A stretch of 64,000 bases of DNA from Omnitrophica WOR_2 bacterium RIFOXYA2_FULL_38_17 (GCA_001805965.1 MHHG01000005.1:5279-69278); one strand, 5' to 3'. Numbered from the stretch's first letter, positions 13,053 through 61,469 are shown. Notes: generated by a model not told the origin, from the letters alone. Translations and numbers: made by a program.

Positions 13053-13061
13053 ACCTGAAAT

Positions 13062-14183: not shown

Positions 14184-15307
14184 AATTAGGAATCGACGCA
14201 AGAGAAATACAGGATGGGGTTTATACAGGTATTGGCCGTTCTCTCTACAACTTCATAAAATACTTTTTATCGCAGAATAATGATGACCAACTAGTTTTAT
14301 TCTCTAGTAAGAAGTTAAGGCTAGGGCCCAATAAGAGGTTCAAAAATATTGTAATACCTGGGAACATTATTATTTTATGGGATCAAGTTGCCCTGCCAAT
14401 GGCAATTAATCAAGAACAAATAGATATTTTCTATTCGCCTTATTACAAAGTGCCTCTTAATGCAAAATGTATCGTTGTAAGCGCCATACTTGACCTTATG
14501 TATATCATTTATGAAAAATATAAAAACAATTTGAATTTCTTTTCGGAATCTTATTATAAGCATTTTGGAAAGCTTTATGCAGACAGGTCAGATATTATAT
14601 TAACTTGCTCTGAGTATTCAAAGAAGGACATTATAAATATTTTTTCTGTTGATCCTGAAAAGATAAAGGTAATACCTTTGAGCGTTAGTGATATTTATAA
14701 AACAGAAAATGAGTCCGGGAAGATCTCAGCAGCTAAAGCAAAGTACGGAATAGAAGGCAGATATATCTATTATATAGGCAACTTCAAGCATCATAAGAAT
14801 GTTGAAAACCTCATAATTGCCTTTAGAAAGATTTTACCTAAATTTAAGGACCTGAAACTTGTTTTAGCTGGTCCAAAAACCCATCTATATCAACAATACT
14901 TGTCATTAATACATGTGCTTTCGATTCAGGATAGCGTAATATTTACTGGAAAGATACTCCCGGAAGATGAGCCGCACCTTCTTTACAATGGTGCTGAAGT
15001 ATTTGTATTTCCTTCGCTTTATGAGGGATTTGGGATACCCCCAATTGAAGCAATGGCATGCGGAACACCTGTTATTTCCTCAAATTTAACTTCACTGCCG
15101 GAAGTTATCAGTAGCGCCGGCATTCTGGTTGATCCTTTCAACACTGATGATCTTGCAGCAGCAATTTCTAGCATATTAAGCAACAATAGCCTTAAAGATG
15201 TTTTAATTGAAAAGGGGTTCAAACTTGCTGAGAAATTCTCTCAGGAAAATGTTTCAAAACAATATTATGAGTTCTTTAAAAAACTGTTAAGGAATAAGGA
15301 TAATTAA
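14180..15307 (+). CDS. GT4 family glycosyltransferase
   Basis: The motif EGFGIPPIEAMACGTPVISS is present. Its start overlaps the previous stop (ATGA). Confidence 0.8.
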   Translation: MKLGIDAREIQDGVYTGIGRSLYNFIKYFLSQNNDDQLVLFSSKKLRLGPNKRFKNIVIPGNIIILWDQVALPMAINQEQIDIFYSPYYKVPLNAKCIVVSAILDLMYIIYEKYKNNLNFFSESYYKHFGKLYADRSDIILTCSEYSKKDIINIFSVDPEKIKVIPLSVSDIYKTENESGKISAAKAKYGIEGRYIYYIGNFKHHKNVENLIIAFRKILPKFKDLKLVLAGPKTHLYQQYLSLIHVLSIQDSVIFTGKILPEDEPHLLYNGAEVFVFPSLYEGFGIPPIEAMACGTPVISSNLTSLPEVISSAGILVDPFNTDDLAAAISSILSNNSLKDVLIEKGFKLAEKFSQENVSKQYYEFFKKLLRNKDN

Positions 15308-15320
15308 CCACATATAAACC

Positions 15321-16457
15321 ATGAAATCACTGTTTATTGTCAATGATTTTCCGCCGATATTGGGTGGCCAATCAACATATTACTACAACTTGTGCAGAGC
15401 CTTACCAAAGGATTCCTTTATCGTTCTTGCTCCTAAATGGGGCAAATACAAAGAATTTGATTCTAATCAAGATTTTACAATTATTAGAAAATCTTATTTA
15501 ACAAAGATACCTTTTTTAGAAAAAGCTTTTAAGATCATCCTTCCATTTTTTTATGCATTACCAATAATTTCCAAAAAAGATATAAAACGGATCCATTGTG
15601 CCCATGTCTTATCTACAGGGGTAGTAGGCTTATTGTTAAAAATACTCTTTAAAAAAGAATATTTTCTGTATACTCATTCTGCGGATATCATGTCTTATCA
15701 ACACATTCCACTAATTAAAAAGCTGCTTGTTACTATCTTGAAGAATGCATCTAAAATAATGGCCAATAGCAATTTTACACATGACAAACTGATTGAACTT
15801 GGCGTAGAAAAGGAAAAAATAATCATTTCTCATCCGTTAATAGACTTCAATGACTACACTAAAGAGACTAATTTAAGCAATATCGTGCAGAAATATGACC
15901 TGAAAGGGAAAAAAGTTATTCTTAGCGTAAACCGCCTTATTGAAAGAAAAGGCAATGATATGGTAATCAGGGCTATTCCTATCATTAAAAGGGAAATAGC
16001 AAATGTAGTTTACCTTATTGTTGGATCAGGACATTATTTATCGACCTTGAAGTCCTTGGTTAAAACATATAATTTAGTTTGTACTGTTATTTTTCTTGAA
16101 TCAATTACCAACTTGGAAATAATAGATCTCTATAAGGCATGTAACGTCTTTGTTATGCCTAGCAGGATTAGCGAAAAAAAGGGCGACGCAGAAGGTTTTG
16201 GTATCGTATTTTTAGAAGCAAATGCCTGCGGGATCCCGGTTATAGGGGGGAGATCAGGAGGGATTCCCGATGCTGTTATTGATAATAAAACCGGAATACT
16301 TGTAGATCCTCTAAGTGTTGATGAAATTGCTAAGGCAATAATTCAACTGCTAAAAGACGAGCATTTAGCAAAACAACTTGGCGAATTCGGGAAGAACAGG
16401 GTTAAAGAAGAATTCGATTGGAGAAACGGGGCAAAAGAAGTATCAAATCTTTTCTAA
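15321..16457 (+). CDS. GT4 family glycosyltransferase
   Basis: The motif EGFGIVFLEANACGIPVIGG is present. Confidence 0.75.
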   Translation: MKSLFIVNDFPPILGGQSTYYYNLCRALPKDSFIVLAPKWGKYKEFDSNQDFTIIRKSYLTKIPFLEKAFKIILPFFYALPIISKKDIKRIHCAHVLSTGVVGLLLKILFKKEYFLYTHSADIMSYQHIPLIKKLLVTILKNASKIMANSNFTHDKLIELGVEKEKIIISHPLIDFNDYTKETNLSNIVQKYDLKGKKVILSVNRLIERKGNDMVIRAIPIIKREIANVVYLIVGSGHYLSTLKSLVKTYNLVCTVIFLESITNLEIIDLYKACNVFVMPSRISEKKGDAEGFGIVFLEANACGIPVIGGRSGGIPDAVIDNKTGILVDPLSVDEIAKAIIQLLKDEHLAKQLGEFGKNRVKEEFDWRNGAKEVSNLF

Positions 16458-16467
16458 TTAATATTTT

Positions 16468-17619
16468 ATGATAAAAGTTCTGCACATAATCACTAGGCTT
16501 GATATCGGAGGATCTGCTACAAATACTATAGACACTGTAGCTAGATTAGATAAATCTAAATATCATGTATCTCTTGTCAGTGGAAAAACCATTGACCCTG
16601 ATGGTGTAATTGAAGAAAAGCTCATCAATTATAATATGGATTATACTTTTATTAATGAACTGCGTCGTGAAATCAATCCCTTCCTGGATATCATATCCCT
16701 TATTAAGCTTTGCGATCATATAAAGAAAGGGAACTACGATATTGTTCATACCCATTCATCAAAAGCTGGAATACTGGGCCGCTGGGCTGCTAAGTTAGCA
16801 GGGGCTAAACATATAGTTCACACTCCGCATGGGCATGTTTTTCATAGTTACTTCAGCAGGCTTTTAACTGCAGTATTCTTGTTAGTTGAAAAATTTACCG
16901 CAAAATTCACAGACAAAATCATTACATTGACAATAAAAGGAAAACTTGAACACATTAAATATGGTATCGCAAAGCCAAGCAAATTTGTTCAAATATACAG
17001 CGGTGTGGATTTCAATAGAATAAGCATTAACAATGATTTTTCACAAAAAATTAAAAATGATCTAAAAATCGATAATGACAATATAGTTTTCGGAACTGTA
17101 ACTAGATTAGAGCCTATTAAAGGAAATGATTGCTTAATCGAGGCAATGGCTGAAGTTGTTAAAAACATCCCAAATTCACTATTAGTAATTGTTGGGGATG
17201 GCGCTGAGAGACAAAACCTCATTGAGCTAGCAGAATCATTAAATATTATTGATAAAGTGAGGTTTGCTGGATTCAGGCATAATAAATATGACTTTATAAA
17301 TATTTTTGACATTTTTGTTCTAAGCTCGCTTAACGAGGGAATGGGAAGAGCAATACTTGAAGCTATGTATTTAAAAAAACCGGTTATTGCAAGCGATACG
17401 GGTGGGATTCCAGAGCTGGTAGCTGAAGGTAAAACTGGTATGCTAGTTACACCTGGCGATTCTAATGCTTTGTCAGAAGCAATGATCACTTTAGCAAAAA
17501 ACAAAGAGCAGATTGTGGATTTTGGTGACAGCGGAAATAAATTAGCAAATGATTTGTTCAGCCTAGATACAATGATATCCAAAATTGAGGATTTATACGA
17601 AAGCCTTTTAAACAAATGA
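16468..17619 (+). CDS. GT4 family glycosyltransferase
   Basis: DIGGSATN is at the N-terminus. The C-terminal motif is EGMGRAILEAMYLKKPVIASDTGGIPE. Confidence 0.75.
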   Translation: MIKVLHIITRLDIGGSATNTIDTVARLDKSKYHVSLVSGKTIDPDGVIEEKLINYNMDYTFINELRREINPFLDIISLIKLCDHIKKGNYDIVHTHSSKAGILGRWAAKLAGAKHIVHTPHGHVFHSYFSRLLTAVFLLVEKFTAKFTDKIITLTIKGKLEHIKYGIAKPSKFVQIYSGVDFNRISINNDFSQKIKNDLKIDNDNIVFGTVTRLEPIKGNDCLIEAMAEVVKNIPNSLLVIVGDGAERQNLIELAESLNIIDKVRFAGFRHNKYDFINIFDIFVLSSLNEGMGRAILEAMYLKKPVIASDTGGIPELVAEGKTGMLVTPGDSNALSEAMITLAKNKEQIVDFGDSGNKLANDLFSLDTMISKIEDLYESLLNK

Positions 17620-29294: not shown

Positions 29295-29723
29295 ATGAAT
29301 AAAAGGGACGCTAAGGTTAAGCACTCCGGCATAATTACAAAGATCGATAACGACCTTATTACTGTTAATATAGTTAATGCTTCCGCTTGTTCTAGTTGTC
29401 ACGCAAAAAGTCAATGTTCTTTATCAGAAAAACAAAACAAACTGATTAATGTTAAATATATTACCGATTACTCATCATTTAAAGTGGGCGATAGTGTTTC
29501 GGTATTAATAGAGCTATCAATTGGCTTTAAAGCCATATTTATCGGTTATTTATTACCATTTTTTATTTTATTGATAACTTTAATAGCATCTTTCATGTTC
29601 ACCCAAAATGAGGTAACTTCTGGACTTATATCTATATCCATGTTGATCCCTTATTATTTTGGTGTTTATTTTTTTAGAAATCGTCTTATTAAAAATTTTG
29701 AATTCAGCATAGAACCAATTTAA
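29295..29723 (+). CDS. RseC/MucC-family protein (SoxR-reducing system / Rnf-associated)
   Basis: There is an N-terminal Cys cluster (ASACSSCHAKSQC) followed by two TM helices. Its position directly upstream of rnf is typical. Confidence 0.65.
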   Translation: MNKRDAKVKHSGIITKIDNDLITVNIVNASACSSCHAKSQCSLSEKQNKLINVKYITDYSSFKVGDSVSVLIELSIGFKAIFIGYLLPFFILLITLIASFMFTQNEVTSGLISISMLIPYYFGVYFFRNRLIKNFEFSIEPI

Positions 29724-29744
29724 ATTTAATTATTTTATCGAAAT

Positions 29745-30626
29745 ATGCAAAGCACATTAAAATACGCAATTTTATCATTAAGTACCATTGGTACTGTATC
29801 CGCGATCATTCTTTATTTCATTGCACAAAAGTTCAAAGTTATAGAAGACCCGAGGATTGATGATGTTGAACAAGTTTTGCCTTTAGCGAATTGTGGTGGC
29901 TGCGGATATCCCGGATGCAGGAATTTTGCAGAAGCTTGTGTCAACAAACATGATCTTGCCTGTTTATATTGTCCAGTTGGTGGTCCTGCTACGATGCAAA
30001 AAATAGCTAAAATTCTGGGACTAGAAGCTGGCGAGCAAATACCAATGATAGCTGTAGTAAGATGTTCAGGTTCACCTGAAAATAGGCCAAAAACAACAAT
30101 TTATGACAGCGTAAAAAATTGTCTAATAGCTTCAAGTGTTTATAGTGGCGATACAGGCTGTGAATATGGGTGCTTGGGCCTTGGAGATTGTGTTGCTTCT
30201 TGTTTATTTGATGCAATACATATAAACGAAAAAACTAGTTTGCCAGAAGTTGATCAAGATAAATGCACCGCATGTAACGCATGTGTTAAAGCATGTCCAA
30301 AGAAAATTATTGAACTCAGAAAAAAAGGGCCTAAAGATAGGCGTGTTTTTGTATCTTGCATAAATAAAGAAAAGGGAGCCATTGCTAGAAAAAGCTGTAA
30401 AGTTGCCTGCATTGCCTGCATGAAATGCCAAAAAGAATGCCCTTTTGATGCAATCACTGTAGAGAATTTTCTTGCTTACATAGATTTTGAAAAATGTAAA
30501 CTGTGCAGAAAATGTGTCGCTGTCTGTCCAACTTCGGCGATCTTAGAAACAAATTTTCCACCAAAAAAAGATTCAGAGCTTAATAAAGAACCAATTGTTA
30601 CTCAAGAAAATAATACAAATGTCTAA
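29745..30626 (+). CDS. rnfB: Rnf complex subunit B (Fe-S)
   Basis: There is an N-terminal TM helix, CGGCGYPGC, and several CxxCxxCxxxCP ferredoxin motifs. Confidence 0.8.
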   Translation: MQSTLKYAILSLSTIGTVSAIILYFIAQKFKVIEDPRIDDVEQVLPLANCGGCGYPGCRNFAEACVNKHDLACLYCPVGGPATMQKIAKILGLEAGEQIPMIAVVRCSGSPENRPKTTIYDSVKNCLIASSVYSGDTGCEYGCLGLGDCVASCLFDAIHINEKTSLPEVDQDKCTACNACVKACPKKIIELRKKGPKDRRVFVSCINKEKGAIARKSCKVACIACMKCQKECPFDAITVENFLAYIDFEKCKLCRKCVAVCPTSAILETNFPPKKDSELNKEPIVTQENNTNV

Positions 30627-31962
30627 AGGTTTAAAAACATTTCCAGTCGGTGGTGTTCATTCATGTGATAACAAGCTTTCTGCGTCCAAGCAGATAGAAT
30701 CAGTCGCTTTGCCAACTATTGTAAGTATTCCGTTATCTCAACATATCGGTGCTCCTGCTATGCCTATAGTAAAACCTCTTGATAAGGTTAAAGTTGGCCA
30801 GCTTATAGCAAAGGCAAGCGGTTTTGTTTCGGCAAATATTCACTCCTCAGTTTCTGGAACTGTTAAGAAAATCGATGATGTTCCTGACTCATGTGGATAT
30901 AAAAGGCCTGCAGTTATTATCGATGTTGAAGGCGATATCTGGGAAGAAAATATAGATAGAACGGATTCTTTATTAAAGGAAATAATATTTGATCAAAAAT
31001 CCATTATAGAAAAGATCCAAGCGGCAGGAATAGTCGGCCTTGGTGGCGCAACTTTTCCTACACATGTCAAATTATCTGTACCAAAAGGAAAGACCTGTGA
31101 GTACCTTTTGATAAATGGTGTAGAATGCGAGCCGTATCTAACAAGTGATCACAGATTGATGCTTGAGAAGACAGAAGAGATTTTTGTAGGCATTATAATA
31201 GTAATGAAAGCACTTGGTGTTCCTAAAGCAATAATTGGCATTGAAAACAATAAAAAAGATGCAATTGATAAAATGTCAGCGATCTCTAATAATTATAAAG
31301 GCATTTCAGTGCAAGCATTAAAGGTTCAATATCCTCAGGGCGGAGAAAAGCAGCTTGCCAAAGCCTTAATTAATAGGGAAATCCCCGCACCGCCAGGATT
31401 GCCAATTGACGTTGGCTGTGTTATTCAAAATGTCGGTACAATTTATGCTATATATGAGGCCGTCCAAAAAAACAAGCCTTTGATAGAACGAGTTGTTACA
31501 ATTACCGGAAAATCGATTAAAAAGCCTTCAAATTTTTTAGCCAGGATAGGAACTCCCATAAGTATTTTAATTCAGGCTACAGGAGGACTTCCAGAAGATA
31601 CCGGCAAAATTATAAGTGGTGGCCCAATGATGGGCAAAGCAATAAACACTACGGATATTCCCGTATCTAAAGGTACTTCCGGCATCCTTGTTTTACCTGA
31701 GGAACTGTCAAACAGGAAAAATGCAAATAACTGCATACTTTGCGCAAAATGTGTTTCCGTATGTCCGCTCGGATTAGAACCGTATCTTTTATCAAAGCTT
31801 TCTTTAAAATCCTTGTTTGACAAAGCAGAAAATGAGCAGGTTGTAAATTGTATAGAATGCGGTTGCTGCAGTTATAATTGCCCGGCTAAGATACCTTTGT
31901 TAGATTTCATTAGATTAGCCAAGACAACTGTAATGAAAAATATTAGGAATAGAGTAAAATAA
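30619..31962 (+). CDS. rnfC: Rnf complex subunit C
   Basis: The RnfC/NqrA-like N-terminus is present, with two C-terminal 4Fe-4S motifs (CILCAKCVSVCP, CIECGCCSYNCP). The ATG at 30619 overlaps the rnfB stop (the track ORF begins at 30595). Confidence 0.8.
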   Translation: MSKGLKTFPVGGVHSCDNKLSASKQIESVALPTIVSIPLSQHIGAPAMPIVKPLDKVKVGQLIAKASGFVSANIHSSVSGTVKKIDDVPDSCGYKRPAVIIDVEGDIWEENIDRTDSLLKEIIFDQKSIIEKIQAAGIVGLGGATFPTHVKLSVPKGKTCEYLLINGVECEPYLTSDHRLMLEKTEEIFVGIIIVMKALGVPKAIIGIENNKKDAIDKMSAISNNYKGISVQALKVQYPQGGEKQLAKALINREIPAPPGLPIDVGCVIQNVGTIYAIYEAVQKNKPLIERVVTITGKSIKKPSNFLARIGTPISILIQATGGLPEDTGKIISGGPMMGKAINTTDIPVSKGTSGILVLPEELSNRKNANNCILCAKCVSVCPLGLEPYLLSKLSLKSLFDKAENEQVVNCIECGCCSYNCPAKIPLLDFIRLAKTTVMKNIRNRVK

Positions 31963-32960
31963 TGAATAATAACCTTTTAAAAGTATCCTTATCGCCACAT
32001 ATTTCAGGAAAAGGATCTGTAAAATCCATAATGTACGGGGTAATTATAGCTTTAATGCCTGCATTTATAGCAGGCTTGTACTTTTTTGGTATAGGGGCGC
32101 TTAGGGTCACTTTAACTGCAGTAGTTGCATGCGTGCTTTTTGAATACGTTATACAAAAATATCTTCTCAAAGTAGAATCAACAATTTCCGATGGATCCGC
32201 AATTATTACTGGCCTGCTTCTGGCATACAACGTCCCAAGTAATTTACCTCCAAATATCATAATACTTGGAAGCTTAGTAGCTATTGGAATAGCAAAGATG
32301 TCTTTTGGAGGATTAGGCAACAATCCGTTTAATCCCGCTTTGGTCGGCAGAGTTTTCTTGCTGATATCTTTTCCAGTCGATATGACTAGCTGGCCAAAAC
32401 CTATTCTGACAAGGGCATCTGCTATCGACGCTGTTACTGCAGCAACACCGCTTGCAATAGTAAAAGAAGGACTTGCTGGCGGTACACCTTATTCAAAACT
32501 GCTAACACAAATACCATCATACTGGGATCTGTTCATCGGCAACGTAGGTGGATGCATCGGTGAGGTTTCTGCCTTAGCATTGATAATTGGCCTTTTTTAT
32601 ATGTTGTACAAAAAAATTATTACATGGCATATTCCAGTCTCAATGACCGGTTCAATTTTTATTTTTACAGGAATTATGTGCCTGATAAATCCACAGTCTA
32701 ATGCAGACCCGTTTTTTCATATCCTGACTGGTGGTGTTTTGCTAGGTGCTATCTTTATGGCAACAGATATGGTTACTTCGCCTATGACCCCTAAAGGTAT
32801 GCTTATTTTCGGATCAGCCATTGGTATTTTAACTGTGATTATTCGAGTATTCGGAGCATATCCTGAAGGGGTATCTTTTTCTATCTTGATCATGAATGCC
32901 TTCGTGCCGTTAATAAATAAATTTTGCAAGCCAAAACGCTTTGGAGAAATAATAAAATAA
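31962..32960 (+). CDS. rnfD: Rnf complex subunit D (NqrB-like)
   Basis: It is a polytopic membrane protein with the conserved FMATDxVTSP motif. Confidence 0.8.
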   Translation: MNNNLLKVSLSPHISGKGSVKSIMYGVIIALMPAFIAGLYFFGIGALRVTLTAVVACVLFEYVIQKYLLKVESTISDGSAIITGLLLAYNVPSNLPPNIIILGSLVAIGIAKMSFGGLGNNPFNPALVGRVFLLISFPVDMTSWPKPILTRASAIDAVTAATPLAIVKEGLAGGTPYSKLLTQIPSYWDLFIGNVGGCIGEVSALALIIGLFYMLYKKIITWHIPVSMTGSIFIFTGIMCLINPQSNADPFFHILTGGVLLGAIFMATDMVTSPMTPKGMLIFGSAIGILTVIIRVFGAYPEGVSFSILIMNAFVPLINKFCKPKRFGEIIK

Positions 32961-33538
32961 TGGCTAATAAAGAATCAACATTTATAAATATGGTAGCTAC
33001 ACTGTTCATCGTGACATTCATTTCATCAGCGGCTGTAGGCTATGTATATGAAGCTACCAAAGAGCCTATTGCGCAAGCAAGGCTTGAGAAAAAAACTATT
33101 GCTATACGGGCAGTCGTGCCTGATTTTGACAATAAACCCATTGATGAAACATATACTATAAATTCCAATGTCGGGCCATTATCCTGTTACCCTGCAAAAC
33201 AGGGAGGTCAATTAGTCGGAACTGCTATTGAAGCAATTACGAATAAAGGCTTTGGGGGAACAGTGAAATTAATGGTAGGTCTTCTTCCAAACGGCGTAAT
33301 TAAAGATATTGCTGTTCTTGAGCACAAAGAGACTCCGGGCCTTGGGGATAAAATGGATAAAAGCAAATCTGATTTTAGTATTCAATTTAACGGCAAAGAT
33401 CCCTCTAAAATGAAATTAACCGTATCAAAAGATGGTGGTGATATAAACGCAATAACTGCCGCTACGATCAGCTCTAGGGCCTTTTGTGATGCTGTTCAAA
33501 CAGCATACACTTCATATATGAAAGAAGGAAAACAATGA
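32960..33538 (+). CDS. rnfG: Rnf complex subunit G (FMN-binding)
   Basis: An FMN-binding domain is present with the …ITAATISSRA motif. The in-frame ATG at 32960 overlaps the rnfD stop (the track ORF begins at 32924). Confidence 0.75.
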   Translation: MANKESTFINMVATLFIVTFISSAAVGYVYEATKEPIAQARLEKKTIAIRAVVPDFDNKPIDETYTINSNVGPLSCYPAKQGGQLVGTAIEAITNKGFGGTVKLMVGLLPNGVIKDIAVLEHKETPGLGDKMDKSKSDFSIQFNGKDPSKMKLTVSKDGGDINAITAATISSRAFCDAVQTAYTSYMKEGKQ

Positions 33539-34143
33539 ACCAGTGGGATAATTTTAAAAAAGGTTTTTTAAAAGAAAATCCTGTTTTTGTATTGTTGCTT
33601 GGATTGTGCCCTACTCTAGGGGTGACCACATCAGCCTTAAACGGCCTTGCAATGGGTCTTGCAACAGCCTTTGTACTAGTAATGTCAAACAGTGTAATTT
33701 CCCTGATTAAAAACCTGATCCCTAGTAAAGTCAGAATTCCATCTTTCATTGTTGTAATAGCTTCTTTTGTTACTATTGTTGACCTTGTTATGGCAGGCTA
33801 TGCTCCGGCACTGCATGCAAAATTAGGATTATTTATTCCCCTTATAGTTGTCAATTGCATTGTTCTTGGAAGAGCCGAAGGCTTTGCATCAAAGAACAAT
33901 TTACTTTCATCTTTAATTGACGGAGCCAGCATGGGCCTTGGTTTCGCATTTGCATTAACAATTTTAGGCGGAATAAGAGAGCTGCTGGGAGGGGGAGCTT
34001 TCTTCGGGCATAAATTTATAACAGGTGATGGGATACTTATCTTTGTTTTGGCCCCGGGAGCATTTATTGTTTTGGGATATTTGATCGCAATAGTTAATAT
34101 AATCAACAAATCAAAAGCGAAAGCTCATTGCAGCACTGACTAA
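33535..34143 (+). CDS. rnfE: Rnf complex subunit E
   Basis: It is NqrD/RnfE-like, with LGLCPTLGVTT. Its start overlaps the previous stop (ATGA). Confidence 0.8.
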   Translation: MNQWDNFKKGFLKENPVFVLLLGLCPTLGVTTSALNGLAMGLATAFVLVMSNSVISLIKNLIPSKVRIPSFIVVIASFVTIVDLVMAGYAPALHAKLGLFIPLIVVNCIVLGRAEGFASKNNLLSSLIDGASMGLGFAFALTILGGIRELLGGGAFFGHKFITGDGILIFVLAPGAFIVLGYLIAIVNIINKSKAKAHCSTD

Positions 34144-34153
34144 GGAATATTAA

Positions 34154-34726
34154 ATGGAATATTTTTCAATAATAATATCTGCGATATTCGTAAACAATAT
34201 AGTCCTTACACAATTCTTAGGGATATGTCCCTTTTTAGGCGTCTCAAATAAAGTTGAAACAGCTTTAGGAATGGGTGGTGCTGTTTTATTCGTAATGACC
34301 CTTTCAACAATAGTCACCTATTTAGTCCAAAATTACATTCTAGTACCTTTAAACATCGGATATCTTCAGACGATCACTTATATTCTTGTAATAGCTGCGC
34401 TTGTCCAAATGGTCGAAATCATACTTAAAAAAGTTAGTCCCGCATTATATCAAGCGTTAGGCGTATTTTTGCCCTTAATAACAACAAATTGCACCATTCT
34501 GGGAGTTGCTATTCTTGTCATTCAAAAAGAATATAATCTTATTGAAAGCGTATTATTTGCTATCTCAAATGCCTGTGGCTTTGCTTTAGCCCTTATTATC
34601 TTCTCAGGACTCCGTGAAAACCTGGATCTTGTTGAGATTCCTGAAGCTTTAAAAGGGGTTCCCATAGCTCTAATTATAGCAGGCCTCTTATCATTGGCTT
34701 TCATGGGTTTTGCAGGCATAGTATAA
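34154..34726 (+). CDS. rnfA: Rnf complex subunit A
   Basis: It is NqrE/RnfA-like, with FLGICPFLGVS. Confidence 0.8.
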   Translation: MEYFSIIISAIFVNNIVLTQFLGICPFLGVSNKVETALGMGGAVLFVMTLSTIVTYLVQNYILVPLNIGYLQTITYILVIAALVQMVEIILKKVSPALYQALGVFLPLITTNCTILGVAILVIQKEYNLIESVLFAISNACGFALALIIFSGLRENLDLVEIPEALKGVPIALIIAGLLSLAFMGFAGIV

Positions 34727-34751
34727 ATTTCTATTATAATTAATAACTATC

Positions 34752-35597
34752 ATGAATAAAATTATTGAGAAAATCCAATTATCCGAATTAGTCTATCAAT
34801 TAAAAGTAGAAGCACCACTTATTGCAACTGAGAGAAAACCTGGACAATTTATACTGCTTTTGCTATCTGAGGAGGGAGAGCGCATTCCTTTAACTATATC
34901 TGATGCAGACCCCAAAAAAGGATCTATAACATTGATCTTTCAGGTCGTTGGAAAGACAACCCACCTTCTGGCAGAGCTCAACAAAGGTGATTTTATAGCA
35001 AATTTAGTTGGGCCACTGGGAACACCAACTCATATTGAAAACTTTGGTTCAGTTGTTTGTGTCGGAGGCGGGATTGGGGCTGCTCCATTATATCCAATTG
35101 TGCAAGGCCTAAAAAATGCTGGAAACAAGGTCACTGTTATTTTAGGTGCAAGAAACAAAGAACTTTTAATATTAGAGAATAAAATGAAAGCATCTTCTGA
35201 TGAACTAATTATATGTACAGATGATGGCTCATATGGCAGAAAATGTCTTGTTACAGAACCATTAAAAGAGCTTTGTGAACAAAACAATAAACCTGACCTG
35301 GTTGTCGCTATCGGTCCTCCTATAATGATGAAGTTTTGTTCAGAAACCACACGGCCTTTTAACGTATCAACAGTAGTATCATTAAATACAATAATGGTCG
35401 ATGGCACGGGAATGTGCGGTGGCTGCAGGGTCATTGTTGGTGATAAAACAAAATTCGTTTGCGTTGATGGCCCTGAATTTGATGGCCATTTAGTCGATTT
35501 TGATAATATGATGAACCGGCTGAACGCTTATAAAAAACATGAAAACTCAGACCATCATCAATGCCATATTGATCTAAAAATTAAAGATAAAGAATAA
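34752..35597 (+). CDS. NfnA/SudB-like ferredoxin-NADP oxidoreductase small subunit (PyrK-like FAD/2Fe-2S)
   Basis: It has an FAD/NAD-binding fold and a C-terminal CGGCRV...C cluster motif. It is paired with a GltD-like subunit downstream. Confidence 0.65.
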   Translation: MNKIIEKIQLSELVYQLKVEAPLIATERKPGQFILLLLSEEGERIPLTISDADPKKGSITLIFQVVGKTTHLLAELNKGDFIANLVGPLGTPTHIENFGSVVCVGGGIGAAPLYPIVQGLKNAGNKVTVILGARNKELLILENKMKASSDELIICTDDGSYGRKCLVTEPLKELCEQNNKPDLVVAIGPPIMMKFCSETTRPFNVSTVVSLNTIMVDGTGMCGGCRVIVGDKTKFVCVDGPEFDGHLVDFDNMMNRLNAYKKHENSDHHQCHIDLKIKDKE

Positions 35598-38991: not shown

Positions 38992-39564
38992 ATGCCAGCT
39001 AAATCAAATGAATCTGATCTTAAATCACTTGCAAAGAAACTATCAGAATATGTTGAATCAACTTTTGAACAACTATGCAAAACATCTTTCATCGGTGAAC
39101 CAGAGATAATCGTTAAAGATATTATTGAATACAAAACCCGCATGCGGTTATTTGGCCTTGAAAAATTTAATGGTCCTTGCTATATCTCAGCTGTAAATCT
39201 ATATTTAAACGATAATGAACTGAAAAAGGACCATGCCCTTGGAGCAGTTATTCTGTATATTGAGGAATCAGTTGCTTCAGGCCTACTTAAAGCAACCGGA
39301 CAAAAAGGCATAGATTGTGAGGATTTTGACTCTATAACAAACTATACTGGGGAATTCTGCAGCAATATTGTCAGTCAGTTCAAGAATCACCTTATATCCT
39401 CAGGTTACACCAACATAGTTATGTCTGCACCTTCTAATCATCAGGATGATATACCCCTAGGTGTTAATTTTAAATTTTCTGAGAACAAGTATTGCGAACT
39501 TAGCTTTGTCTTGAAAAAAGAACCGGCAATAAAAGTAGATTTCACAATAGGGCCAGCGAAATAA
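38992..39564 (+). CDS. Hypothetical protein (possible CheX/CheC-like fold)
   Basis: It is a 190-aa ORF with no firm motif. The assignment is weak. Confidence 0.3.
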   Translation: MPAKSNESDLKSLAKKLSEYVESTFEQLCKTSFIGEPEIIVKDIIEYKTRMRLFGLEKFNGPCYISAVNLYLNDNELKKDHALGAVILYIEESVASGLLKATGQKGIDCEDFDSITNYTGEFCSNIVSQFKNHLISSGYTNIVMSAPSNHQDDIPLGVNFKFSENKYCELSFVLKKEPAIKVDFTIGPAK

Positions 39565-39847: not shown

Positions 39848-40177
39848 ATGTTAACATATAAAACAGTTTTAGCTTTAATGTTGTTTGGCATGATTTATCC
39901 ACTTATTTTCCTTTTCTGGCATGCAAAAAAAAGCAGTTACAGAAAGCATATAACATATGCAAACATAGCTTCTGGCTTAACAGTGGTATATTTGCTATTA
40001 TCACACATTCCGTTTAACTTCAAACTATGGGTTATCTTCTGGAAAATCACACTTTTAGCATCATCAAGCTATAATTGGAGAAAAAAGACCATTACAGCTC
40101 AGTTATTTTTAGTGCAATTCTTTGCAGGTATTTATGTGTTTTACCTGCTTTTTACTCATAAACCCTTATATTTTTAG
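39848..40177 (+). CDS. Hypothetical small membrane protein
   Basis: It has three predicted TM segments and no homology motif recognised. Confidence 0.35.
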   Translation: MLTYKTVLALMLFGMIYPLIFLFWHAKKSSYRKHITYANIASGLTVVYLLLSHIPFNFKLWVIFWKITLLASSSYNWRKKTITAQLFLVQFFAGIYVFYLLFTHKPLYF

Positions 40178-40204: not shown

Positions 40205-40232
40205 TGTAACTTTTCTTTTCAAATTGCGTTTA
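40205..40232 (+). promoter_or_regulatory. ECF-sigma-type promoter motif TGTAAC-N16-CGTTTA upstream of the ECF sigma gene (possible autoregulation)
   Basis: A -35 AAC core and a -10 CGT core with a 16-nt spacer resemble SigW/SigE-class promoters. Confidence 0.35.
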
Positions 40233-40234
40233 AA

Positions 40235-40855
40235 ATGTTGGAGAGAGGGGAACAAAGCAAACTAGAGAGCTTTATGGAGAAAAAAGACGAACAACTGATA
40301 ATAGAATATCAGCAAGGTAATGATGAGAACGCTTTAGTAACACTCTTTAACCGCTATAAAACTCATATATTGAACTTTGCTTTAAGAATATTGGGCAATA
40401 GGGCTGATGCTGAGGATGTTACAAGTGATTGCTTTTTAACGCTCTTTAAAAAAAGATACATATATCGGGCAAAAGTAAAATTTTCAACTTGGCTTTTTAC
40501 TGTTGCGAGAAATTTATGTATCAATAGAATCAGAAAACGAAAAAAGCTTGGTTCTATGTGGTTTAAAAAAGACAGTAACAATTACGAGCAGTGGGATGTA
40601 ACTGATGAAAAAGACGCTGCAGATACTGAGCTTGAAAAAACAGAGGCTTCAATAATGGTAAGAAAGGCCATCCTAAAACTTGCTGAAGAACAAAAAGAGG
40701 CTCTCATTTTACGAGAATATCATAATATGAACTATGCTGAGATATCACAAATAATGAACTGCTCTTTAGAAAAAGTTAAAATCCTTATATTCAGGGCTAG
40801 AGAACAGCTAAAAATCGAACTATCATCCTTCGTATTGGAGGGAGAAAATGACTGA
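40235..40855 (+). CDS. ECF (sigma-70 family) RNA polymerase sigma factor
   Basis: Region 2 (…LFNRYKTHILNFALRILGNRADAEDVTSDCFL…) and region 4 (YAEISQIMNCSLEKVKILIFRAREQLK) are present. The more likely start is the ATG at 40274, preceded by a GAGAG RBS, because the first ATG sits only 3 nt after the putative -10 element. Confidence 0.8.
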   Translation: MLERGEQSKLESFMEKKDEQLIIEYQQGNDENALVTLFNRYKTHILNFALRILGNRADAEDVTSDCFLTLFKKRYIYRAKVKFSTWLFTVARNLCINRIRKRKKLGSMWFKKDSNNYEQWDVTDEKDAADTELEKTEASIMVRKAILKLAEEQKEALILREYHNMNYAEISQIMNCSLEKVKILIFRAREQLKIELSSFVLEGEND

Positions 40856-43223
40856 ACATATAGAATATAAAAAAATAATATCTATTTATTTTGATGGAGA
40901 AGCAACCCCTCAAGAAAAAACAATAATAGAGAAGCACATATCAGAATGTGAAGATTGCAGAAAGTATCACGAAGAGCTCCATAAACTCTCCAAAAAAATA
41001 AAAAAATGGGGCAATGAATCCCTCTCTCCCGATCTGGAACAAAAAATCAATAGTAATATGATAAATATTACAAATCGGGAGGTCAAGAAAATGAAAACAC
41101 CAAGTTCAATGCTTAAAACAAGTGTCGGCGGTGGAGTAGTAGTTACCTTATTAATTTGTGTTTTTGCCCTTCATAACTACTCACAAAGAAGCCTTCAGGC
41201 CAGAGTTAGAGATGCTTCAATTTATCTGGCTGCAGAAAGATCAGATGCAGCAAAAACAAATCAGTACGAGCCCTATTATCTAGAGGTAGACACCAAGCTA
41301 AAAAAAGATAATCTCAGCGCAATAAAGCCATTCAAAAAAGCATCACCTATCATTAAAGAGGAAGAAAAGACTATCAATTTTAAGTCCGAAAAACCAGTTT
41401 CTCAAAAAGGATCAGATAAATATGAGCCGTATTACCTGGCAACTGATTATGATATTGTCAAAAATGAAACTATTACCGAAACATATTCTATGCCAGGCGA
41501 AAGTGATAAATTGACCTTATCTGAAAAACAAGTATATAAGGTCAAGGATTTGGGTGCAGGCAGTATAAGCCCGTCACAGCCTGCATTTGCTTTTGGAAGT
41601 TCTGATGAAGGAAGAGCGGTTGCAAGAACACGAAGCTCAGCCGGAATGCAAACAATGATGTATGGTTCAGCTGCCATTGCAGATCATGAAATGGGAATTT
41701 CTGACGGTTATTATTATAGGCAAAAATCAATTATGCCTTATCCTGTTAATCCTTACGTTCAACAGCCATACAATACCGAGCAATATGATAGTATCGTGGA
41801 AAATGAGTTTCTTGACGTTTCTGAAAATCCGCTTTCAACTTTCTCTATTGATGTGGACACTGCATCATACAGTAATGTCAGAAGGTTCCTGAATTCAAAT
41901 CAAATGCCACCCGAAGATGCGGTCAGAATAGAAGAGATGATCAACTATTTTTCATATAATTATCCGGCGCCTCAAGGCAACAAGCCATTTTCAATTAATA
42001 CAAATGCCTCAGTATGTCCATGGAACACAAACCACCAATTAGTATCAATTGGATTGCAGGGAAAAGTTTTTGAAGGCAATGAAATCCCCCCCAGTAATTT
42101 GGTATTCCTTATAGATGTGTCCGGGTCAATGAACCAGCCTAACAAATTACCTTTATTAAAATCAGCTTTTTTAATGATGGCTAACCAACTGTCATCAAAT
42201 GAAAGGGTAGCTATTGTTGTATATGCTGGAGCCGCTGGAATAGTTCTTGAATCAACACCAGGCTCAAACAAGCAAAGAATAACTCAAGCCATTAACGACC
42301 TTTCTGCAGGGGGTTCAACTGCCGGCGGCGCAGGGATCCAGCTTGCGTATAAAATAGCTAGAGAGAATTTTATCGATGGTGGAAATAACCGTGTGATTCT
42401 GGCAACCGATGGTGATTTCAATGTGGGAGTTTCATCAAATTCTGAGCTAGTACGTATGATAGAAAAGGAAAGAGAAGCGGGCATATTTTTAACGATCCTT
42501 GGGTTCGGAACAGGCAATTATAAAGATTCGAAAATGGAACAAATTGCCAATAAGGGTAATGGGAACTATTACTATATCGACACACAGAAAGAGGCAAGGA
42601 AAGTGCTTGTCAATGAACTGGGTTCAACACTTTTTACAATTGCTAAGGATGTTAAGATCCAGATAGAATTCAATCCGGCACAAATCAGATCTTATAAACT
42701 TATTGGCTATGAAAACAGATTGCTTGCAAAAGAGGACTTTAATGACGACACAAAAGATGCAGGCGAGTTAGGCGCGGGGCATACAGTAACTGCACTTTAT
42801 GAAATCATCCCTGTTGATCCTGAAAAGGAGACCAGAAAAGTCGACGAACTTGCTTATCAAGTGAAAAAGATCATACCAAGCGCTGATCTTATGACCGTTA
42901 AATTAAGATACAAAGAGCCTAATGGCGTTACTAGCAACTTAATTAAACAAACAGTAAACAAGAATGATATCGCACCAAGTCCTAGAGGTGATCTTCAGTT
43001 TGTTTCAGCAGTTGCCGAATTTGGATTGATATTAAGAAATTCAAAGCACCGAGCAAATGCTTCATACGAGAATGCACTAAGAAATGCCAGAGAAGCAATC
43101 GGAAAAGATGTTTATGGGTACAGGGCTGAGTTAATAGACCTTATTGAAAAAGCCAAGATGATCGATTCAAGGGTCTACAGCGATGATTATGAATCTAACA
43201 CCGGAATGCAGTTTAAAAGGTGA
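40848..43223 (+). CDS. Anti-sigma factor (zinc-finger ZAS N-terminus, single TM) fused to an extracytoplasmic VWA domain (YfbK-like)
   Basis: The N-terminal ZAS motif HISECEDCRKYHEEL is followed by a TM helix (VGGGVVVTLLICVFAL). The VWA MIDAS motif LIDVSGSM is present downstream. The start overlaps the sigma gene by 8 nt. Confidence 0.7.
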   Translation: MTEHIEYKKIISIYFDGEATPQEKTIIEKHISECEDCRKYHEELHKLSKKIKKWGNESLSPDLEQKINSNMINITNREVKKMKTPSSMLKTSVGGGVVVTLLICVFALHNYSQRSLQARVRDASIYLAAERSDAAKTNQYEPYYLEVDTKLKKDNLSAIKPFKKASPIIKEEEKTINFKSEKPVSQKGSDKYEPYYLATDYDIVKNETITETYSMPGESDKLTLSEKQVYKVKDLGAGSISPSQPAFAFGSSDEGRAVARTRSSAGMQTMMYGSAAIADHEMGISDGYYYRQKSIMPYPVNPYVQQPYNTEQYDSIVENEFLDVSENPLSTFSIDVDTASYSNVRRFLNSNQMPPEDAVRIEEMINYFSYNYPAPQGNKPFSINTNASVCPWNTNHQLVSIGLQGKVFEGNEIPPSNLVFLIDVSGSMNQPNKLPLLKSAFLMMANQLSSNERVAIVVYAGAAGIVLESTPGSNKQRITQAINDLSAGGSTAGGAGIQLAYKIARENFIDGGNNRVILATDGDFNVGVSSNSELVRMIEKEREAGIFLTILGFGTGNYKDSKMEQIANKGNGNYYYIDTQKEARKVLVNELGSTLFTIAKDVKIQIEFNPAQIRSYKLIGYENRLLAKEDFNDDTKDAGELGAGHTVTALYEIIPVDPEKETRKVDELAYQVKKIIPSADLMTVKLRYKEPNGVTSNLIKQTVNKNDIAPSPRGDLQFVSAVAEFGLILRNSKHRANASYENALRNAREAIGKDVYGYRAELIDLIEKAKMIDSRVYSDDYESNTGMQFKR

Positions 43224-43302
43224 TCATATAAATAATTAAGGGGAACGCGTCTTCGAAATGACGCATTCCGCAATATTAAACATTATTATAAACCTCCAAG
43301 CT

Positions 43303-43338
43303 AAAAAAGGGGAAGAGCCGAAAACTCTTCCCCTTTTT
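43303..43338. terminator. Bidirectional intrinsic terminator between convergent genes
   Basis: An A-run is followed by a perfect 9-bp stem GGGGAAGAG / CTCTTCCCC with a 7-nt loop and then TTTTT. Confidence 0.7.
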
Positions 43339-45027: not shown

Positions 45028-45939
45028 ATGAATCGAACCAAGTTGACAATATTAATTTTGTTCTTGTTTGCATCCAACGTTAGCGCAGAAATAATCAAGC
45101 TTCATAATGGTGATATTATTGATGCTAAAGTCATAAGAAGAGATTCTGATTCTTTTACCGTAAATATTGGAGGGGTTGAAATAACTTACTGGCAGGATGA
45201 TGTTGAATCAACAGACAGTAATACTCAAGATCAGGGATATAAACAAAATTTAACTGACAATAAGGACACTAATTCTTTTTTAAATCCTGACGATATTTCC
45301 CAAATTTATGACGATTTTAATGATGAATCTGAAACAAGAGACCCATCTTCCGATATAGACATAATCATAAATGATGAAGTTGGCGATATATCAAGAAACA
45401 GTAAATGTTCACATGATATTAAAACGATCTACACAAAAACAGTGCCCGGATATTTAATTTTTAAAGCTGTTACTGAAACTAACATATCAAAATGTCTACA
45501 AGCGGCAAATATGGCTGGAGCAGTAATGGAAGTGTATATTGATGCCGATAATGATAGGTCAACAGGGCAGAATACTTTCTGGGGAAAAATTCCAGGCTTT
45601 GAGTTTCATATCAAACTTTTAGCAGGCATTGATTATGGGAATCAAGGATTCATAACAGAGGGCAGGTTAAATAATCAAGATCCAATAGATTTCTTTGCAA
45701 GCCATGATGTAGGGGATTGCACGGATAGCTCTTTGTGCTTTACAAAGATAATCAACAGCCTTGACAATGATGCGATCAGTAATTCTGAACTTGGTGATAA
45801 TTTTATATCCGCAAAAATACCTATTGAAAAACTTGGATTAACCCCCGGAAAAAAAATCAGACTTATCTTTAGAGAATCTGGCTCAAAAGATATTAAAGAA
45901 GGAAGCTTTTCTCAAGAAAAGTATTTGATTTTAAAATAA
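45028..45939 (+). CDS. Hypothetical secreted acidic protein
   Basis: A signal peptide MNRTKLTILILFLFASNVSA is present. The protein is Asp/Ser/Asn-rich and no domain was recognised. Confidence 0.4.
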   Translation: MNRTKLTILILFLFASNVSAEIIKLHNGDIIDAKVIRRDSDSFTVNIGGVEITYWQDDVESTDSNTQDQGYKQNLTDNKDTNSFLNPDDISQIYDDFNDESETRDPSSDIDIIINDEVGDISRNSKCSHDIKTIYTKTVPGYLIFKAVTETNISKCLQAANMAGAVMEVYIDADNDRSTGQNTFWGKIPGFEFHIKLLAGIDYGNQGFITEGRLNNQDPIDFFASHDVGDCTDSSLCFTKIINSLDNDAISNSELGDNFISAKIPIEKLGLTPGKKIRLIFRESGSKDIKEGSFSQEKYLILK

Positions 45940-59639: not shown

Positions 59640-61469
59640 TTAGCTAGTTTTGGGAATAGGGACTAATTGAGGGAAAATAGAAGCATTCTCAGACATAAAT
59701 TGTTCTAGTTTTATCTTAAAATGTTTAAGTTCTTCAATAGCCTGTTCTCTGTAATCTTGAGTTTCTTTGACCATTTTAGGAAACAATTCAAAGTAATAGT
59801 TAATTCCATCAATAAGATTATCTTTAAACTCAACCAGGACATTCATTTTCTTTTCTGTAGGCTCACACAGGCATTTTTTAGATTCTTGAATAAAATTATC
59901 AACATACATTCTCAATTCCTGAATGAACATATTTGGTCGTACTTTTGAATTAAGAATGTTAATTCTTCCATAGATATGATCAACCATTTCAGTAAGAGTA
60001 AACACTTTTGAAAAATAGGCTAGGTTTGGCCCCGGACAAATAGCTGTATTAAATTTTGTATTATCCTTATCTAGTCCGCATTTCTTTAGCGCAGACGCTC
60101 CCAGATCATGACAGATGCATGCTTTTTCAACAATACTTTGAAATTTTTCTTTAAAGATCTCCGGCTCTAATTTTAAACCAATTAGTTCTTCTAGTTTTAA
60201 TTTCTGATACTGCCTTGAAGCCGTACAAATAGGCTTTTCAGTAAATTCCGTATTTGTAACTAAATGCCCTTTAAAACAGGGACTGCCGGGCTCACCTTTT
60301 TCAATACGTTCTTTTTTTGCTATTTCACTGAGAGAGCTCTTTAAGTTGTTAAAAAGAACCCCTAGTGGCGAAACATGGCTTAAAAATAGATCTTTTTCAT
60401 CAGCTTGAACCAATTTATCCAAAGTTACTTTATCAACAGTAGTAGCTTCTGGCACAAGAAGAAAGGGGGTACCCCAGCCAGTTTTTACCACATTATAATG
60501 ATCCGCTAAAAACTCATCCTCATTTGCTGTACCTATTCCGCCTTGGGCTGTAATTTTCAGTTCGTGAGGAGTTTGAAACGTTTTTCTATTGTTTAATTTT
60601 AAAGCTTTATTATAAATTTCGTGGAGATTAGCTACCAATTCATCTCTTTTGTTTTTAAACTCTTCTAATATTGGCCCTAATAAAAACCCGTTACTTGCAA
60701 AAGCATGTCCGCCGCAATTCAATCCGGACTCAACTCTATATTCAGATATCCAAAGACCTTTCTTCGCAAAGAACTTACCCTGGATGATAGAAGACCTGTA
60801 ATCGCTAACTTTAAGGATTATTTTCTTTTTTATAAAACCACTTGCATTAGCATAAAAATCTTCAAATTTTTCTACATAAGTATAAAGCGTCCTGTTGATT
60901 CCAGCAGAGAAGACTATGGCAGAATTTAATGTGCTTTTTGCATATCCTCTGAGGGCAGAAAGAGCATCAGAAAATTCATCTGGCAAGACAGCTGCATTCT
61001 TATCATAATTTATCCTATCAAGCTTTGTCATAATATTTACATCAATGCTTCCGGGCTCCATTGCTGACTTAAGCTCATCTTGAAGCTTCTTTTTTAGCTC
61101 AGGGTCTTGCTCACTTAGCATTTTCTTATATTTATTTTTAAGGTGGGATGTATCCTTAAGAAGTTCAAAATATTTTGTTATTTCACTATTTGGCTCAAAT
61201 ACACTTGAACGCACTTTTTCAAAATCACTTTTCACCATTTTATCAAGTAAGTTTAAATAAGCAGTGATTCTACGTGCACGATAGTCTTCATCAAATTTTT
61301 TAATAGGAACATACTCTTCTTTTATCAGGCCACTATAATATTTCCTCATTTCCTCGATCATAGAATCATCCACAAGAGAAATGACTGAGGATATGCCATA
61401 TTTAGCAACTTTGACAGGAGTGTCAATTGTGAAACCTGTACCCATTACAGGGATATGAAATGAATGCAT
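59640..61469 (-). CDS. Hypothetical 609-aa protein (possible TIM-barrel-like core with Cys-rich C-terminal half)
   Basis: It is a long uninterrupted ORF containing GLNCGGHAF and QGGIGT segments, plus Cys motifs (CICHDLG…C, CPGPN, CLCEP). No confident family assignment could be made. Confidence 0.4.
   Translation of the reverse strand: MHSFHIPVMGTGFTIDTPVKVAKYGISSVISLVDDSMIEEMRKYYSGLIKEEYVPIKKFDEDYRARRITAYLNLLDKMVKSDFEKVRSSVFEPNSEITKYFELLKDTSHLKNKYKKMLSEQDPELKKKLQDELKSAMEPGSIDVNIMTKLDRINYDKNAAVLPDEFSDALSALRGYAKSTLNSAIVFSAGINRTLYTYVEKFEDFYANASGFIKKKIILKVSDYRSSIIQGKFFAKKGLWISEYRVESGLNCGGHAFASNGFLLGPILEEFKNKRDELVANLHEIYNKALKLNNRKTFQTPHELKITAQGGIGTANEDEFLADHYNVVKTGWGTPFLLVPEATTVDKVTLDKLVQADEKDLFLSHVSPLGVLFNNLKSSLSEIAKKERIEKGEPGSPCFKGHLVTNTEFTEKPICTASRQYQKLKLEELIGLKLEPEIFKEKFQSIVEKACICHDLGASALKKCGLDKDNTKFNTAICPGPNLAYFSKVFTLTEMVDHIYGRINILNSKVRPNMFIQELRMYVDNFIQESKKCLCEPTEKKMNVLVEFKDNLIDGINYYFELFPKMVKETQDYREQAIEELKHFKIKLEQFMSENASIFPQLVPIPKTS

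Follow-up and report, generated by a model that had tools for sequence, protein, structure and literature searches.

Pairs of an extracytoplasmic function (ECF) sigma factor and its anti-sigma factor rank among the commonest signalling devices in bacteria. AlgU, SigW, and RpoE are each under the control of regulated intramembrane proteolysis of a single-pass anti-sigma factor. For RsiW, which holds SigW in B. subtilis, the bound zinc is structural and control is proteolytic, exerted by PrsW and then by RasP. For the ECF289 group, anti-sigma factors are on record in which a von Willebrand domain and DUF3520 are fused (Casas-Pastor et al. 2021, PMC7826278). In this study, we analysed a stretch of 64,000 nucleotides from Omnitrophica WOR_2 bacterium RIFOXYA2_FULL_38_17 (the window; all positions are counted from its first letter) and found two genes that very probably form a self-contained signalling cassette of Omnitrophota, in which an ECF sigma factor that regulates its own operon (40274-40855) is paired with a cognate anti-sigma factor that spans the membrane once (40848-43223). 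The pair is real at these coordinates and stands well above chance expectation. We hold the assignment of the parts of the cassette, drawn from sequence and structure prediction, with high confidence, and consider an RsiW-like proteolytic relay for the anti-sigma factor, proposed by analogy, to have an even chance of being right. A first, sequence-only reading of this DNA had called the outer part of the anti-sigma factor an unusually large sensory module. The architecture is in fact abundant and on record for ECF289 (PMC7826278); the cassette is thus of an ordinary type, and the ECF289 listing already covers anti-sigma factors with this outer architecture. What is new here is the promoter, the revised sigma start, the affinities of RsiW/SigW type, the finding that the zinc ligands are dispensable, and the history of the outer domain as a module.

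The sigma gene (40274..40855, + strand) encodes a group 4 (ECF) sigma factor of 193 aa with the Pfam domains Sigma70_r2 and Sigma70_r4_2 and without region 3, and its product scores 101.5 bits against the sigma70-ECF model TIGR02937 (cut-off 42.9). The mechanically called open reading frame (ORF) is 206 aa long with an ATG at 40235, and is probably 13 codons too long. The start most likely lies at 40274 (MEKKDE..., 193 aa), because the -10 element of the promoter described below ends at 40233, because L081, the closest relative, lacks the ATG at 40235, and because the start called for the genes of the relatives corresponds to 40274. Among solved chains, the closest are AlgU (6in7/8z6g, E 3.7e-19), SigW (5wuq_A, E 3.9e-18), and RpoE (1or7, E 3.9e-15). 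With either start, the sigma gene overlaps the anti-sigma gene by 8 nt (40848-40855), and a Shine-Dalgarno (SD) sequence of the latter, GGAGGGAG (40837..40844, + strand), can be read within the 3' end of the former; the two genes are, to judge from their layout, translationally coupled. Relatives with their flanks were fetched by protein identity (n = 7; L081-L085, L205, and L206), and one more, L018, came from a scan of species genomes. An ECF sigma gene lies directly upstream of the anti-sigma gene in all nine related loci examined, and in these eight relatives it encodes 155-205 aa. In the relatives, the two genes overlap by 4-11 nt, with a short gap in L084 and L206 (29 nt apart where separated). 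The neighbours other than the sigma gene differ among the relatives, and no partner gene is kept alongside. Because the ECF sigma gene is always directly upstream while the remaining neighbours differ between loci, the cassette consists of these two genes.

Upstream of the sigma gene we found a putative ECF-type autoregulatory promoter (40205..40233, + strand), consisting of the -35 element TGTAACTTT, a 13-nt spacer, and the -10 element CGTTTAA. ECF promoters have AAC within the -35 and CGT within the -10 element, and the motif is a candidate autoregulatory promoter by this form, with AAC and CGT about 16 nt apart. The complete motif is invariant in seven loci (the window, L018, and L081-L085), though their sigma proteins are only 52-84% identical and the flanks cannot be aligned; L205 and L206 keep the -35 element and have variant -10 elements. 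The chance expectation for the relaxed motif is 0.02 per window, and in the window this relaxed motif finds only the copy of the operon itself, while a search allowing up to three mismatches finds that copy and one chance-level match. The exact motif occurs at 80 loci in a metagenome scan. An ECF sigma gene starts within 30 nt downstream in 8 of these 80, an enrichment ahead of such genes, two of the eight being then followed by a VWA anti-sigma factor, and the remaining loci have no recurrent target gene. Nine of the 80 (L090, L096, L099, L108, L123, L128, L131, L133, and L147) share a near-identical, unrelated sequence of about 70 nt (TACGCAAGTTTGTAACTTTTGCATTTCAGAAGCGTTTAATGAAATAAAATCCAAAC...) that has the same -35/-10 pattern but is not followed by a sigma gene. 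This sequence may be a repeated element, or else a promoter belonging to an ECF regulon of another organism.

The anti-sigma factor gene (40848..43223, + strand), defined by its ORF, Pfam matches, and translation, encodes 791 aa followed by a stop codon. Pfam matches are counted here above curated cut-offs, and AlphaFold2 (AF2) models were made of the full-length protein (mean predicted local distance difference test score, pLDDT, 68) and of aa 1-135 on a 75-row alignment. The sequence-only reading had described a single 791-aa gene overlapping an ECF sigma gene by 8 nt, with an HxxxCxxC zinc motif at the N-terminus, one transmembrane (TM) helix, and, outside the cytoplasm, a VWA/YfbK-like module whose metal ion-dependent adhesion site (MIDAS) is intact. 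This description stands in all these respects. There is no internal stop in the translation, the sigma ORF ends at 40855, HISECEDC is found at aa 30-37 within a zf-HC2 match above cut-off, strong hydrophobicity over 19 residues is confined to about aa 88-111, and the VWA match contains DVSGS at aa 423-427, with PF12450 and YfbK_C matched on either side. The domain search and AlphaFold modelling that it had proposed were both run and, together with fold searches, bear out the zinc-binding anti-sigma (ZAS) domain, the TM helix, and the VWA/YfbK module.

The first 79 residues (40848..41084, + strand) form a cytoplasmic domain of four helices according to zf-HC2, phmmer, AF2, and Foldseek. zf-HC2 (PF13490) matches aa 9-38 with 28.6 bits, above its gathering cut-off of 22.2, and phmmer finds RsiW (5wuq_C) at E 6e-5 with about 20% identity over 60 residues. 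In the AF2 model of aa 1-135, the helices span residues 2-15, 21-33, 35-53, and 61-78 with pLDDT of 82-92, and the full-length model likewise has four helices at the N-terminus. The 20 best PDB matches of this model in Foldseek are all anti-sigma domains bound to ECF sigma factors (RsiW, MucA, RslA, ChrR, and RskA). RsiW 5wuq is the best of them (probability 1.0, TM-score 0.64), although the E-values are weak (0.025 or more), the domain being short. By sequence and predicted fold, the N-terminal domain is thus a class I zinc-finger-type anti-sigma domain that comes closest to B. subtilis RsiW.

The likeness to the SigW/RsiW system of B. subtilis (5wuq) is not confined to this domain. Here as there, an ECF sigma factor is co-transcribed with a single-pass anti-sigma factor that has an HxxxCxxC class I domain, RsiW is the best match of the N-terminus in both sequence and fold, and SigW is among the three best matches of the sigma factor. 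In contrast, the extracytoplasmic part of RsiW is small and unrelated, whereas the window protein has a 200-aa linker and a 470-aa YfbK-type VWA module in its place, and the window showed no gene resembling those for PrsW or RasP.

These two parts make up the approximately 680 extracytoplasmic residues of the window protein, about 200 (aa ~110-309) being a low-confidence, length-variable linker and about 470 a folded module. Topology prediction gives a single-pass protein with the N-terminus inside, on the basis of one hydrophobic segment and no signal peptide. The single TM helix, placed at about aa 91-109 (41118..41174, + strand) by hydropathy and AF2, reads TSVGGGVVVTLLICVFALH, and the helix modelled by AF2 spans about aa 95-133. 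It is followed, up to about aa 125, by a juxtamembrane stretch, Q-x-Y-x-Q-R-x-x-Q-[GA]-R-x-R, that is conserved in a 35-sequence alignment (A1). The periplasmic linker (aa 110-307; 41175..41768, + strand) is predicted to be mostly disordered (pLDDT ~30 for aa 129-309) and varies in length. In the window protein it carries two copies of the motif YEPYYL (aa 140-145 and 192-197; 41265-41282 and 41421-41438, + strand), and E193, in the second copy, is its only near-invariant residue in A1. A YEPYY-like motif is present in 85 of the 120 best homologues. Of 80 other genome loci checked, only L018, whose protein is a close relative and also fused, has it; the stand-alone YfbK homologues all lack it. 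The linker of some homologues also carries repeats of R-L-K-S-A-x-D-D-I-G-D-Q-[FY]-S, which are absent from stand-alone YfbK proteins.

The outer module begins with the PF12450 'vWF_A' domain (aa 308-399; 41769..42044, + strand; E 7.5e-43, pLDDT 78-95), continues with the VWA domain (aa 417-581; 42096..42590, + strand; Pfam VWA E 1.2e-17, also VWA_2 and VWA_3), and is completed by YfbK_C/DUF3520 (PF12034; aa 593-771; 42624..43160, + strand; E 1.3e-67), for which AF2 secondary structure gives a beta-sandwich and then a helical part. This order, PF12450-VWA-PF12034, is that of the YfbK family. The MIDAS, D423-x-S425-x-S427 (42114-42128, + strand) with T491 and D521, has a complete ligand set, and its five residues are invariant in A1 and in 79 of 79 sequences from many phyla. 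So are D335, D337, R345, R346, E362, E363, N366, and Y367 of the PF12450 domain in the same 79 sequences. In total, 121 positions of the module are at least 97% invariant across at least eight phyla, which is unusually strong conservation. They include clusters of acidic or His residues, both in the N-terminal domain and in DUF3520. The invariant clusters outside the MIDAS, which are DxD-like or of Glu/His, hint at a catalytic or second metal site. AF2 folds aa 310-780 with confidence (pLDDT mostly 80-95). The best fold matches are ArnB (8s05, E 2e-17), a Catenulispora VWA protein (4fx5, E 2e-15), and ITIH1 (6fpy, E 7e-15), all of which are VWA + beta-sandwich + helical assemblies. E. coli YfbK has been named as a structural orthologue in the ArnB paper (PMC12852372). 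ArnB, Sec23/24 (cytoplasmic), and ITIH1 (eukaryotic, extracellular) are only 14-18% identical to the module and have no link to a sigma factor. Behind the module, the protein ends in a clade-specific C-terminal tail with G-[IM]-x-F-K at its end (43161..43220, + strand; pLDDT <40). FK or FR occurs within the last 14 residues of 97 of the 120 close homologues, and is absent from stand-alone and other fused homologues. A role of the FK tail as a ligand of a PDZ protease, of the DegS/OMP kind, was considered unlikely, as its distance to the true C-terminus varies among homologues.

The distribution of the module was traced with the family alignment in a scan of species genomes (one genome per species), which gave more than 597 relatives, and the best 80 were analysed. 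These 80 come from Bacteroidota, Cyanobacteria, Acidobacteriota, Gemmatimonadota, Verrucomicrobiota, Planctomycetota, and others, with 50-65% identity over aa ~302-775. At about 72 of the 80 loci the protein is stand-alone and begins with a signal peptide or lipobox, after which a CarboxypepD_reg-like domain often comes. An ECF sigma gene lies directly upstream in seven, and an eighth, at a contig end, has an anti-sigma-like N-terminus. The window protein is 55-65% identical to stand-alone YfbK homologues of Bacteroidota, Cyanobacteria, Acidobacteriota, and Gemmatimonadota and shares with them the invariant MIDAS, but, unlike the window protein, YfbK-type proteins are usually secreted proteins or lipoproteins that have neither an anti-sigma domain nor an adjacent sigma gene.

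Among the fused relatives, L002 and L018 have strong zf-HC2 matches. Three others (L028, L042, and L076) show only sub-threshold similarity to RskA_N or zf-HC2, have no Cys motif, and lie beside sigma factors distant from that of the window. In Verrucomicrobiota, Acidobacteriota, and Planctomycetota, the VWA module is joined to anti-sigma domains that are not of the ZAS type. Conversely, a search with aa 1-135 among 1.84 billion representative proteins gave 440 relatives, some of which carry DUF4349 in place of the VWA module. Six of them (P0132, P0136, P0138, and P0141-P0143) combine DUF4349 with the anti-sigma-TM-juxtamembrane cassette, at 35-49% identity over aa 1-125. Since each occurs joined to other partners, the outer module and the anti-sigma cassette are independent and exchangeable, and both kinds of swap would fit an outer domain that acts as an exchangeable sensor.

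The sigma factors beside these proteins bear on the relation to ECF289. A +1 anti-sigma factor with DUF3520 and a von Willebrand domain, as described for ECF289, is what the window encodes. However, ECF289 derives from the original ECF20 (CnrH-like), whereas the window sigma factor is closest to AlgU, SigW, and RpoE, and CnrH is not among its PDB matches at E <= 1e-5. This hints that the window sigma factor may fall outside ECF289. Moreover, the sigma factors beside VWA anti-sigma factors in Verrucomicrobiota, Acidobacteriota, and Pirellulales are distant from that of the window (E 1e-9 to 1e-15), so the fusion exists in more than one ECF lineage.

Taking these parts together with the precedent of RsiW, we propose the following course of signalling. 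In the resting state, the N-terminal domain would hold the sigma factor sequestered at the membrane, with a zinc site that is structural. A change of bound partner, folding, or assembly at the periplasmic MIDAS module would then expose the juxtamembrane and linker region to a site-1 protease, after which a site-2 intramembrane protease and cytoplasmic proteases would remove the anti-sigma domain, as happens with RsiW, RseA, and MucA. Once free, the sigma factor would transcribe its own operon from TGTAACTTT-N13-CGTTTAA, along with a regulon located not at this locus but in other parts of the genome. The sequence-only reading had suggested metal-dependent ligand binding outside the cell as the trigger, which is a reasonable inference, given that the MIDAS is invariant in all 79 sequences.

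Several results weigh against this course of events. Pfam scans of 50 ORFs of the 64-kb window outside the operon revealed no gene for a site-1 or site-2 protease of the M50, PrsW, or DegS type, and neither the motif scans of the window nor the metagenome scan found a regulon member other than the operon itself. The sensor role of the module is an assumption, and our literature search gave no experimental paper either on YfbK function or on any VWA/DUF3520 anti-sigma factor. Conservation of so many positions across phyla would likewise be in keeping with an enzyme, or with a structural partner that is fixed, as opposed to a receptor whose signal varies. Finally, AF2 predicted no confident contact of the linker or tail motifs with the folded module.

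A more specific version of the proposed course is one that we regard as a long shot. By analogy with integrins, a Glu in the linker, the near-invariant one of YEPYYL, might fill the MIDAS in the resting state as a pseudo-ligand, perhaps jointly with the G-I-x-F-K tail. The real ligand would displace it, exposing the linker to the site-1 protease and freeing the sigma factor. On this view, the module may monitor a universal envelope component, and in the Omnitrophota/Planctomycetota clade its state would be passed on by such a switch.

Among the rival explanations, the one that survives best retains the proposed anatomical steps and changes the meaning of the signal. The module may be a working YfbK-type protein, such as an enzyme, an adhesin, or an envelope scaffold, and the anti-sigma domain may report on the assembly or occupancy of the module to which it is joined, so that the sigma factor would be released as a checkpoint or feedback when the module is unengaged or misassembled. 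In favour of this idea, most of its homologues are stand-alone periplasmic proteins or lipoproteins (about 72 of 80 loci), the 121 invariant positions are more typical of a fixed catalytic or structural role, and the structural relatives (ArnB, the Sec23/24 core, ITIH1, and pilus adhesins) act in protein assemblies. On the other hand, no partner genes are conserved beside the cassette. The checkpoint passes through the same anatomical steps as ligand sensing, and sequence cannot separate the two. We consider the checkpoint unlikely, though clearly the strongest of the competitors.

A second rival would place the trigger in the cytoplasm, with the HxxxCxxC zinc site acting as a thiol/redox switch as in RsrA, or in a ChrR-like response, and with the outer module serving only to anchor or localise the protein. 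The motif is indeed intact in the window protein, with the ligands H30-x3-C34-x2-C37 (40935..40958, + strand) and, as read from the translation, a probable fourth ligand, His4 (40857-40859, + strand). A His-His-Cys-Cys ligand set is ChrR-like. The window protein shares the HxxxCxxC motif and the four-helix anti-sigma fold with RsrA, ChrR, and RslA; ChrR and RslA are among the fold matches, and a weak similarity to RsrA is seen with TIGR03988. This similarity amounts to 22 bits, however, far under the RsrA equivalog cut-off of 62.5. The N-terminal domain holds only two Cys residues, its closest solved relative is RsiW, and the window protein is membrane-bound, whereas RsrA and ChrR are soluble. 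HxxxCxxC is present in 86 of 120 close homologues, each of which also has an upstream His 20-32 residues before it (86 of 86), but about 30 of the 120 have a homologous domain in which all four zinc ligands have been replaced. These ligand-less proteins keep the TM helix, the linker, the VWA module, and the upstream sigma gene, and two of them, P0030 and P0067, still have both the sigma gene and the -35 element upstream. Because they retain everything else, the conserved input seems to lie outside the zinc site, on the periplasmic side. We infer that the zinc site is structural, and regard a cytoplasmic trigger as very improbable.

Still less probable is a role as a motor-coupled force transducer of the TolA/TonB-like kind, in which the vWA domain would form the head and the resemblance to anti-sigma factors would be incidental. 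Putative vWA force transducers with a TM helix, a long disordered linker, and a YfbK-like vWA head have been described in Planctomycetota-Verrucomicrobiota-Chlamydiota (PVC) bacteria (PMC12204202), and the window protein has the same topology. However, no tolQ/tolR/exbB/exbD-like gene is present at the window locus or at eight related loci, the TM helix has neither an SHLS motif nor the aspartate of the transpore helix, and the N-terminus is a genuine anti-sigma domain, the gene being coupled to that of a sigma factor.

The weakest rival, to which we give almost no credence, is an assembly or frameshift artefact joining a short anti-sigma gene to a separate YfbK-like gene; it could appeal to the poorly conserved linker and to both halves being known as stand-alone proteins, but a signal peptide and a separate start are both missing from the VWA half, and the reading frame (40848..43223) is uninterrupted. 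A missed stop near aa 100-120, where the sequence-only reading had advised a check, was not found. The identical protein is encoded on nine contigs from four sources (NCBI, JGI, ENA, and Logan), its only name being hypothetical protein DDX37_00120 of a Candidatus Omnitrophica metagenome-assembled genome, and with the sigma/anti-sigma pair also present in 9 of 9 related loci the test for a fusion artefact was negative. The 120 best homologues are 48-78% identical and almost all 630-870 aa long with the same Pfam set; more than 100 homologues, from independent assemblies, hold both halves in one frame, and in the 35-sequence alignment the halves stay in frame despite changes in linker length. 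On the evidence given above, the fusion artefact, the redox switch, and the force transducer were rejected outright.

The remaining features of the locus lie at its two ends. A purine-rich element, GGAGAGAGG (40240..40248, + strand), follows the -10 element at a distance of 6 nt, where the transcript is predicted to begin. It occupies this position in five of seven aligned loci (including the window, L081, L083, L084, and L085), and L018 has a shifted variant, GAGAGAGGG. In L083-L085, the element is 70-110 nt away from the sigma start codon, and hence it is not the ribosome-binding site of the sigma gene. As a speculation, it could be a 5'-terminal stabilising SD-like element. The 5' leader is predicted to be unstructured, and an Rfam search around the locus gave no match. 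Just upstream of the promoter is an ORF for a hydrophobic protein of 109 aa (39848-40177) without Pfam match, the 3' end of which is conserved in L081 at the DNA level. Downstream, a bidirectional intrinsic terminator (43304..43338, either strand), made up of an A-tract, a 9-bp G+C-rich stem, and a U-tract, bounds the cassette before a convergent radical-SAM gene. Its predicted folding energy is -21.1 kcal/mol (z -5.3), none of 200 shuffled sequences folds as well, and a consensus scan had not listed this hairpin. A second hairpin lies between the convergent genes at 43242-43269.

Elsewhere in the window, a long same-strand cluster (926-23684) resembles those for surface-polysaccharide/O-antigen biosynthesis. 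It contains three radical-SAM/SPASM genes, a UbiA prenyltransferase, two epimerases/dehydratases, a GT2 and a GT1-like gene, five consecutive GT4 glycosyltransferase paralogues (11937-17619), WbqC, a PIG-L deacetylase, a DegT aminotransferase, and an 865-aa TPR protein. An RseC/MucC-family gene ('positive regulator of sigma E'; 29295-29723) stands directly before Rnf-type genes for an RnfB-like Fe-S protein, RnfC, RnfD, and FMN_bind/RnfG (together 29295-35597). It is probably an Rnf/SoxR-reducing accessory and not a partner of the sigma factor encoded 11 kb away. Sizeable ORFs without Pfam match are located at 38992-39564, 45028-45939, 4776-6449, 8418-9968, and 59640-61469, in addition to that at 39848-40177, and one of these, of 190 aa, is also called as a gene at the syntenic position of L081.

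In summary, the YfbK family has no assigned function although E. coli has a member, and the cassette of this Omnitrophota bacterium offers a practical way in. Being compact and having a sharply defined promoter, it could be rebuilt in a heterologous host to ask what the MIDAS module senses, and a promoter matrix run over complete Omnitrophota genomes could read out the regulon. If the pseudo-ligand switch were true, it would provide the first functional handle on the YfbK family, since the regulon of the sigma factor would tell what the module reports.

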